From Escherichia coli (lineage in GTDB: Bacteria; Pseudomonadota; Gammaproteobacteria; Enterobacterales; Enterobacteriaceae), in the NCBI RefSeq assembly GCF_001677475.2, contig NZ_CP015229.1: a stretch of 64,000 nt of DNA, one strand, 5' to 3'. The stretch's first letter is position 1. Each line of letters starts with the position of its first letter. The notes beneath the pieces are model-generated. The model worked only from the letters and a program-made list of their open reading frames with translations. It was not told the DNA's origin and searched no databases. This document shows, in pieces, positions 5,098 through 7,030 of this stretch. The position numbers and the translations under genes are program-made.

Positions 5098-5577
5098 TTA
5101 CCAGCGTGGTAAGGGACAAGAAGCATTGCTCGTTAATAAACTTTGCAATGTCTCTCCATCAGGGAAAATTAATTCCGGCGCAATCTCAAACAGCGGCCAC
5201 AGCATAAATCCACGATTTTTCATATCGTAGTGCGGAACGGTCAGGCGCTCGGTGTTAATCACCTGATTGCCAAACAACATAATGTCTAAATCGAGCGTGC
5301 GCGGCCCCCAGCGTTCGGCTTTACGGACGCGACCTTGCTGCAATTCAATACGCTGTGTGTGATTGAGTAACTCTTCGGGCGCGAGTGCGGTTTCCAGCGC
5401 CACGGCGGCGTTGAGGTAATCAGGTTGATCCTGCGGCCCCAGCGGTGGAGTGCGGTAAAACGAAGAAACGGCAAGAATGCAGCTTTCAGGGATATCACCG
5501 ATTGCTTTCACGGCAGCATTGACCTGCTCCAGTGGAGAGGCCAGATTGCTGCCTATGGCAATATACGCCACTGTCAT
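5098..5577 (-). CDS. folK: 2-amino-4-hydroxy-6-hydroxymethyldihydropteridine pyrophosphokinase (HPPK)
   Basis: 159 aa ORF; N-terminal 135 residues recognisable as E. coli HPPK; start ATG overlaps pcnB stop (ATGA at 5574-5577). Confidence 0.93.
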
Positions 5578-6971
5578 GCGGTGCCCTCACGACGCGGCGC
5601 GCGTTTGCGTGGGCGACGAGTACGACGACGCGTTGACGGTTCCTCGTCCAGTTCGTTAAGCATCCCTTTTTGATCTGGTGGCGCGGAAACCTGGAACTCC
5701 CCCCACCATTTCACCAGACGCTGCAGTTCAGCGTTACGTTCAACTTCAGCTCGCAAGGCCAACAGGTCATAAGCCGCACGGAACTTAGGATGCTCCAGCA
5801 GTTTCCATGCGCGTTTACCCTGACGTCGGGACATACGCAACTGCAACTGCCAGATATCGCGGGTTAACGTCGTCAGACGTTTCGGGATTGCCAGTGAACG
5901 GCAGGCTTCGTCCAGCACGTCGTTCATCGCCAGCGCGAAAGCGTCGTGATAGGTCAGGCCACTCTCCTGAGCGATCTTCTGTGCCGTCTCCAGCAGCGGA
6001 TACCAGAACATGGCGGCAAACAAGAACGCCGGGTTCACACGCATATCGTTATGGATACGCGTGTCGGTATTCTTCAGTACCTGCTCAATAATGCGCTCCA
6101 TCGGACTGTCGCCATTTTCCGTGAAGTAACGGGTAATGGTCGGGAACAGCGGCTGGAACAGATGATATTCACACAGCAGTTTATAGGTTTCGTAACCGTA
6201 TCCCGCTTGTAGCAGTTTAAGAGACTCTTCAAACAGGCGTGCCGGAGGAATATCGTTCAATAAGGTAGCGAGGCGGGGGATCGGTTCTGCGGTTTCTGGG
6301 CTGATGCGCATCCCCAGTTTTGCAGCAAAACGTACCGCGCGCAGCATCCGTACCGGATCTTCACGGTAGCGCGTTTCCGGATTACCAATCAGACGGATAA
6401 CGCCGTCTTTCAGATCCTTCATGCCGCCAACGTAATCGCGAACGGTAAAATCCGCGACGCTGTAATACAGGCTGTTGATAGTGAAATCGCGGCGCTGGGC
6501 GTCTTCTTCGATGGAACCGAAAATGTTGTCGCGTAGCAACATGCCGTTTTGCCCGCGTTGGGAGGTTGTGCGGTCGCTGACGTTACCTTCGTGGTGTCCA
6601 CGGAAGGTTGCGACTTCGATAATCTCCGGGCCAAACATCACATGAGCAAGACGGAAACGGCGACCCACCAGGCGGCAGTTACGGAATAGTTTACGCACCT
6701 GCTCAGGCGTAGCGTTGGTGGTCACGTCAAAATCTTTCGGCTTTTTGCCAAGTAACAGGTCGCGCACGCCGCCGCCAACCAGCCAGGCTTCGTATCCCGC
6801 TTTATTGAGCCTGTACATTACCTTCAGGGCATTTTCACTGATATCTTTGCGGGAGATAGCATGTTGCTCACGCGGGATCACCGTCACCTGGGGACGGGCG
6901 GCAGCCTGTTCAGCCTCGCTTTCCTCGCGGCTTAGCACCTTGCGGCAAAAATTAGCGACTCGGGTAAAAAT
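5574..6971 (-). CDS. pcnB: poly(A) polymerase I
   Basis: Nucleotidyltransferase motif [10 protein letters not shown]...DFD; the ORF track extends to a TTG at 6992, but the established E. coli start is an AUU codon, which I place at complement of 6969-6971 (residues I-F-T-R-V). Confidence 0.9.
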
Positions 6972-7030
6972 AGTACACCTCGGTAGTGTCAAACATCATT
7001 CAGGACAAAAAAATAGCGGCTAATCATAGC

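Follow-up and report, generated by a model that had tools for sequence, protein, structure and literature searches.

The AUU start of pcnB and its four-base overlap with folK in an Escherichia coli genome

Introduction

Where does translation of pcnB begin, and what does its contact with folK mean for the expression of the latter? We considered a stretch of 64,000 nucleotides from an E. coli genome (hereafter the window), in which three genes follow each other on the minus strand: gluQ (7957-7031), a frame of 472 codons (6992-5574) and a frame of 159 codons (5577-5098). The middle one, 5574..6992, is the longest open reading frame at this place. It opens at TTG 6992-6990, with an in-frame TGA (6998-6996) two codons upstream, and would yield 472 amino acids. 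The initial annotation set this TTG (6990-6992) against an ATT codon at 6969-6971, where the conserved N-terminus begins; both positions are exact when the minus strand is read.

The literature favours the ATT. PMC2939334, PMC3561954, PMC9764084 and PMC5499595 credit Binns and Masters (2002) with the finding that pcnB initiates at AUU, which limits the synthesis of poly(A) polymerase I (PAP I), and bioRxiv 063800 refers to that study for the AUU start as well; the citing papers also attribute to this study the suggestion that many proteobacterial pcnB homologues may start at AUU. In reporters, initiation at AUU proceeds at about 1-2% of the AUG level (bioRxiv 063800), and PAP I is present at about 30-50 molecules per cell (PMC3561954). 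The latter paper gives the pcnB start as UUG in its introduction and as AUU in its discussion, which shows the historical confusion over this start. A literature search for start-site profiling data mentioning pcnB gave nothing usable.

The other confirmed chromosomal gene of E. coli with an AUU start is infC, encoding IF3 (PMC5499595, bioRxiv 063800). It resembles pcnB in combining a weak start codon with a low or regulated rate of translation; it differs in that its use of AUU is linked to IF3 autoregulation (PMC5499595).

Comparison set

The comparison set consists of the best 80 loci from a genome scan with the PcnB protein, all of them from Enterobacteriaceae; some counts refer to 79 complete loci. 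The protein search was word-indexed, and the matches listed include close relatives only. A representative search and three contig look-ups reached proteins with 54-67% identity to PcnB. Shine-Dalgarno (SD) duplex energies were computed against the 3' tail of 16S rRNA, the 5th percentile for local 20-nt windows being -6.4 kcal/mol.

Genes and their products

The two genes of interest are as follows.

5574..6971, minus strand: pcnB, poly(A) polymerase I, 465 codons and a TGA stop, start codon ATT
5098..5577, minus strand: folK (HPPK), 159 codons and a stop

The gluQ product matches GluQRS in a profile search. The protein of 465 amino acids counted from ATT matches the NCBIfam equivalog NF008634 with residues 1-464 on profile positions 1-468/469, scoring 993 bits against a cut-off of 702, and TIGR01942 with 523 bits against a cut-off of 306. 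Over residues 28-442 it is matched by the crystal chains 3AQK, 3AQL and 3AQM of E. coli PAP I (E about 1e-284), and its closest database relatives carry PF01743, PF12627 and PF12626, that is, the set of a PolyA_pol head, an RNA-binding domain and an Arg-rich C-terminal region. By its full-length equivalog match, its domain set and the PAP I chains this is PcnB, poly(A) polymerase I, a class II nucleotidyltransferase. The product of the last gene matches the FolK equivalog NF007595 over its full length (327 bits).

The 2.3-kb region has about 94% nucleotide identity to each of the 5,424 E. coli genomes that match it, and CP089930.1 encodes the same PcnB protein (100% identity). These identities place the source in an Escherichia lineage a little outside typical E. 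coli. The final 35 bases or so of folK (5098-5133, minus strand) and the sequence beyond diverge from E. coli; the megablast match ends near 5133. The folK coding sequence is annotated with 456 nt in the best-matching E. coli genome and has 480 nt here, and a fimbrial-type gene lies beyond it (4496-3918).

The closest described system is pcnB of E. coli K-12 (b0143; Binns and Masters 2002, Mol Microbiol 44:1287). The two share an identical sequence from the promoter to codon 27, the ATT, the GAGGTG SD box, a product of 465 amino acids and the gluQ-pcnB-folK neighbourhood. The host lineage alone differs, with the 94% identity of the region and the diverged 3' end of folK. The base-for-base identity with MG1655 begins at the end of gluQ and extends at least as far as codon 27 of pcnB; in coordinates relative to the ATT, it covers at least -50 to +80. 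Between the two PcnB proteins there are, we assume, two amino acid differences.

Promoter and transcription unit

A single candidate promoter was found upstream of pcnB.

7023..7051, minus strand: sigma-70 promoter-like site, -35 box TTCTCA (7051-7046), 17-nt spacer, -10 box TATGAT (7028-7023)

It overlaps the 3' end of gluQ, the -10 hexamer lying over the gluQ stop codon. No other promoter-like matches were observed in 6800-7300. In K-12, the pcnB-folK transcription unit is named S-159171 (PMC4161252). Read as a start site at 159171, this name maps by colinearity with K-12 to position 7016 of the window, seven bases past the -10 box. The site at 7023..7051 thus fits the published pB promoter.

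The sequence GCTGAGCTATGATTAGCCGCTATTTTTTTG (7011-7033, minus strand) extends over the gluQ stop codon, the -10 hexamer and the start-site region. It is found again in many genera, with a homologous sequence in most of the 80 loci. In one of the more distant loci, L083, two tandem copies of a similar motif lie upstream of pcnB.

The 5' region of 117 nt counted from 7016 folds into a less stable structure than shuffled controls (z = +1.67), which suggests that the initiation site is open.

The start codon of pcnB

The initiation region contains the following elements.

6969..6971, minus strand: initiation codon ATT of pcnB, without variation in the Enterobacteriaceae species compared (80 of the best 80 loci)
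6976..6981, minus strand: SD box GAGGTG, 4 bases upstream of ATT
6990..6992, minus strand: in-frame TTG opening the longest frame, judged not to be the start
6936..6968, minus strand: codons 2-12 of pcnB, a stretch of the initiation region with nucleotide-level conservation

The protein begins with (I), and the ATT is followed by the codons TTT ACC CGA GTC GCT AAT TTT TGC CGC AAG GTG. The GAGGTG box occupies positions -10 to -5 in 80 of the 80 species of the comparison set, and its joint invariance with the ATT is far beyond chance. The anti-SD duplex for ATT 6971 has an energy of -7.2 kcal/mol, which is close to the 5th percentile given above. For TTG 6992 the value is +0.4 kcal/mol and for the GTG at codon 12 it is +0.5 kcal/mol. 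The initial annotation had proposed to look for an SD box positioned for the ATT, and the invariant GAGGTG is such a box.

The variation pattern points to the same codon. Positions -4 to -1 are all variable, and changes in codons 2-12 are only synonymous and in third positions; thus the variation changes its character at the ATT. Some species have an in-frame stop as close as -15 upstream of it. In 43 of the 80 best loci, the frame from the closest stop upstream down to the ATT contains no canonical start (ATG, GTG or TTG). The ATT occupies the site homologous to the start assigned experimentally in E. coli, an SD box lies at the right distance from it, and no canonical codon that could serve instead is conserved. 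A coding sequence of 1398 nt beginning at this ATT is annotated in K-12 (b0143) and in one PGAP record. Identity with K-12, these two RefSeq annotations, the comparative data against the TTG and the literature together support the statement of the initial annotation that E. coli pcnB starts at AUU and that this limits the amount of poly(A) polymerase.

The arrangement is retained at larger distances. GAGGTG-NNNN-ATT is kept in L083 (CP043324.1, 67% protein identity) and in L085 (LR217737.1, 62%), a genome of 1.08 Mb where pcnB is annotated from ATT. The third contig, L084, is more distant and ambiguous: an ATT ATT lines up with the start, yet in-frame canonical starts lie upstream. More distant homologues apparently have an ordinary Met start and a different N-terminus, as judged at the protein level only.

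Translation could instead begin at the upstream TTG 6992-6990 and yield the protein of 472 amino acids found in some database entries. This TTG opens the longest frame and would lie within the mRNA if transcription starts at 7016; versions of PcnB with 472 residues are indeed present in public protein sets, and two Salmonella loci have an ATG at the -21 position. However, the TTG has no SD box, and a canonical codon occurs at -21 in only 28 of the 80 best loci (TTG in 26, ATG in 2), 43 of the 80 lack every canonical start upstream, and in some the frame is closed by a stop at -15, -18 or -21. Moreover, the seven additional residues are not conserved, and both RefSeq and the curated NCBIfam model begin at the ATT. 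We regard initiation at this TTG as extremely improbable; the codon would be an accident of the open frame.

The second candidate is the GTG at codon 12 (6938-6936), which would give 454 amino acids and turn the conserved upstream sequence into a non-coding leader. The codon is invariant (79 of 79 complete loci among the best 80), many automated predictions from the ENA and Logan sources have this length, and the nucleotide-level conservation of codons 2-12 could also fit a non-coding regulatory leader. Since these codons are conserved at the nucleotide level, amino acid conservation within Enterobacteriaceae is not independent proof of their translation. On the other hand, the GTG has no SD box at a usable distance (an AAGG abuts it), and all five variable codons within 2-11 have third-position, synonymous changes only. 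The more distant loci argue in the same direction. The corresponding stretch of L083, FSQIANFCRKV, has first- and second-position changes (T to S, R to Q, V to I) in an intact frame, and that of L085, FTRVSNFYRHV, also has amino acid replacements with the reading frame kept. The published start is the AUU (PMC2939334, PMC3561954). A start at codon 12 is thus very improbable, and the GTG that is picked by ab initio gene finders would be internal.

Finally, two isoforms have been proposed: the full-length one, which starts at AUU, and an N-terminally shortened one, which starts at the internal AUG of Liu and Parkinson and is transcribed from the intragenic sigma-S promoter pS1. The proposal was based on two bands in anti-PAP I Western blots and on pS1 activity in vitro and in ppGpp-null cells (PMC2939334). 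The published internal ATG, as we infer from the text of that paper, is codon 52 (6816-6818, minus strand), which is preceded by AAGG; a second patch of low synonymous variation, at codons 41-47, could be taken in favour of the proposal. However, the AAGG is only 2 bases from the ATG, pS1 gave no signal in wild-type cells in both growth phases, and the short isoform was called unlikely by its own proposers (PMC2939334). Codon 52 encodes Met in only 23 of the 80 best loci and Leu in 57, which argues against a conserved short isoform. We consider the two-isoform model improbable and retain the single start at AUU.

Some other features of this region were observed. The patch at codons 41-47 (6831-6851, minus strand) is milder than that at the start of the gene; it contains CGC AAA GAT, invariant in 80 of the 80 best loci, and lies near the published pS1 and the internal ATG. 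Codon 29 (6885-6887) is ATG in 72 of the 80 best loci and GTG in 3, including the window. The first residues covered by the broad pcnB subfamily model (residue 31) and by the crystal constructs (residue 28) fall at this boundary; in the window, no SD box was seen before the codon. A short out-of-frame ORF of 15 codons (6952-6999, minus strand; ATG ATG TTT GAC ... CGC TAA), not preceded by an SD box, overlaps the SD box and the ATT of pcnB. It was rejected as a candidate regulator, since among the inspected loci its ATGs occur only in Escherichia sequences.

The competing starts are reflected in public databases, where PcnB is found at 465 amino acids, at 472 (start at -21), at 454 (GTG at codon 12) and at 447-450 (P0003, P0013, P0029, P0114 and others). 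These differences depend on the start chosen by the gene caller. The annotation problem is real, and the curated records already solve it.

Conservation of codons 2-12

The least expected result is the conservation of synonymous positions immediately after the ATT. In the best 80 loci, the third-position entropy of codons 2-12 amounts to 0.19 bit, and every other 11-codon window within the first 430 codons of pcnB has a higher value (median 1.05, 5th percentile 0.70 bit). For comparison, it is 1.19 in codons 2-12 of folK and 1.21 in an 11-codon stretch at the conserved gluQ motif. One of the codons, CGA, is invariant in 79 of the 79 complete loci. CGA is a rare arginine codon in enterobacteria.

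One possibility is that the frozen codons form an undescribed cis-acting RNA element tuning the AUU-dependent initiation, either through a hairpin at the SD box or as a site for a protein or a small RNA. A small hairpin pairing the SD box with codons 2-4, with the AUU in its loop, appears in both single-sequence and alignment folds. The RNAalifold consensus of 80 species is weak (-10.3 kcal/mol, with a covariation term of -0.73). Two-sided changes of pairs in the two hairpins of the initiation region were absent from the 80 species, except for one in a single sequence, and no Rfam family matched the interval 5000-7400 at permissive E-values up to 1. A structured leader was rejected given the z-score of the 5' region, the lack of covariation support and the loss of the SD hairpin in the more distant L083. 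We consider a dedicated RNA element unlikely. The constraint may be no more than a sign that a weak start site is tightly tuned.

The pcnB-folK junction

The two genes overlap by four bases, and folK has a candidate SD box of its own.

5574..5577, minus strand: ATGA overlap, the folK start ATG (5577-5575) lying on the pcnB stop TGA (5576-5574)
5584..5588, minus strand: SD-like GAGGG for folK, within the last codons of pcnB (CGT GAG GGC)

The initial annotation read this overlap as implying translational coupling. The overlap itself is exactly as described and is mostly conserved. Among the 79 complete loci, the pcnB stop reads ATGA in 39 and GTGA in 36, that is, in 75 loci, and recognisable folK begins in the overlap in 69. 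Similar contacts are common: six other overlaps of a stop and a start by four bases or one base, between long ORFs on the plus strand, occur in the window (18313, 19203, 50214, 51362, 57262, 61703). As a class, then, the ATGA overlap is ordinary here, yet this one is conserved.

The geometry is that of a coupled pair. The stop overlaps the start at 5577-5574, both genes lie on one strand, and a common transcription unit has been reported (PMC4161252), as in the ATGA and GTGA overlaps of operons that are the usual setting of coupling. However, two features differ from such pairs. Firstly, folK has its own SD-like box, whose duplex energy is -6.2 kcal/mol at a spacing of 6 bases; in 73 of the 79 loci an SD-like 4-mer precedes the start codon in the overlap, with its first base between -16 and -6. 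Secondly, in some genera the overlap is broken. The spacer between the pcnB stop and folK in Citrobacter contains an ERIC-like insert of about 110 bases in five loci (L007, L010, L011, L014, L015) and a shorter one in a sixth, L016 (at about 2899-3035 in those loci). Spacers with a hairpin separate the genes in Phytobacter (L035, L037, L046), and in L060 no folK is present within 1.4 kb of pcnB. With spacers or lost adjacency in 10 of the 79 species, coupling is dispensable. Thus the overlap stands, and the geometry makes coupling plausible in this genome, although not obligatory.

An alternative is that folK is translated independently from its own SD box and that the ATGA is compact packing with no function in coupling. 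The SD-like motif with its duplex energy, the broken junctions and the abundance of short overlaps in the window all agree with this; in addition, at the reported figure of about 30-50 PAP I molecules in each cell (PMC3561954), strict coupling would presumably force FolK to a similarly low rate. On the other hand, the overlap is kept in 69 of the 79 species despite switching of the start codon between ATG and GTG. Since the reported amount of PcnB is so low, independent initiation has about the same chance of being the main route. Judging from the arrangement of signals, translation of folK probably relies on two groups of ribosomes, those that re-initiate after terminating on pcnB and those that load directly on the GAGGG.

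Predicted PcnB+HPPK fusions of 630 and 584 amino acids are present in public databases. These are probably assembly frameshifts at the ATGA junction.

Conclusions

We conclude, with a probability of about 0.92, that pcnB and folK form an operon where pcnB starts at AUU 6971-6969, placed by the GAGGUG box, and folK starts at an AUG overlapping the pcnB stop. The AUU start and the four-base overlap are real and strongly conserved; both were described for E. coli in 2002 and stand in the reference annotation, and the AUU start is textbook knowledge there. In the proposed mechanism, the invariant GAGGUG four bases upstream would position the ribosome on the AUU and, AUU being a poor initiator, PAP I would be made at low levels.

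Finding this start in a close relative of K-12 adds no new biology, and its value is in annotation: the ATT with its SD box in 80 of the 80 best loci, 43 of which lack any alternative start, make a clean case for the gene model of 465 amino acids. The constraint on codons 2-12 is the sole element here that might repay experiment. For the cell, the AUU start would keep a toxic enzyme, PAP I, scarce.
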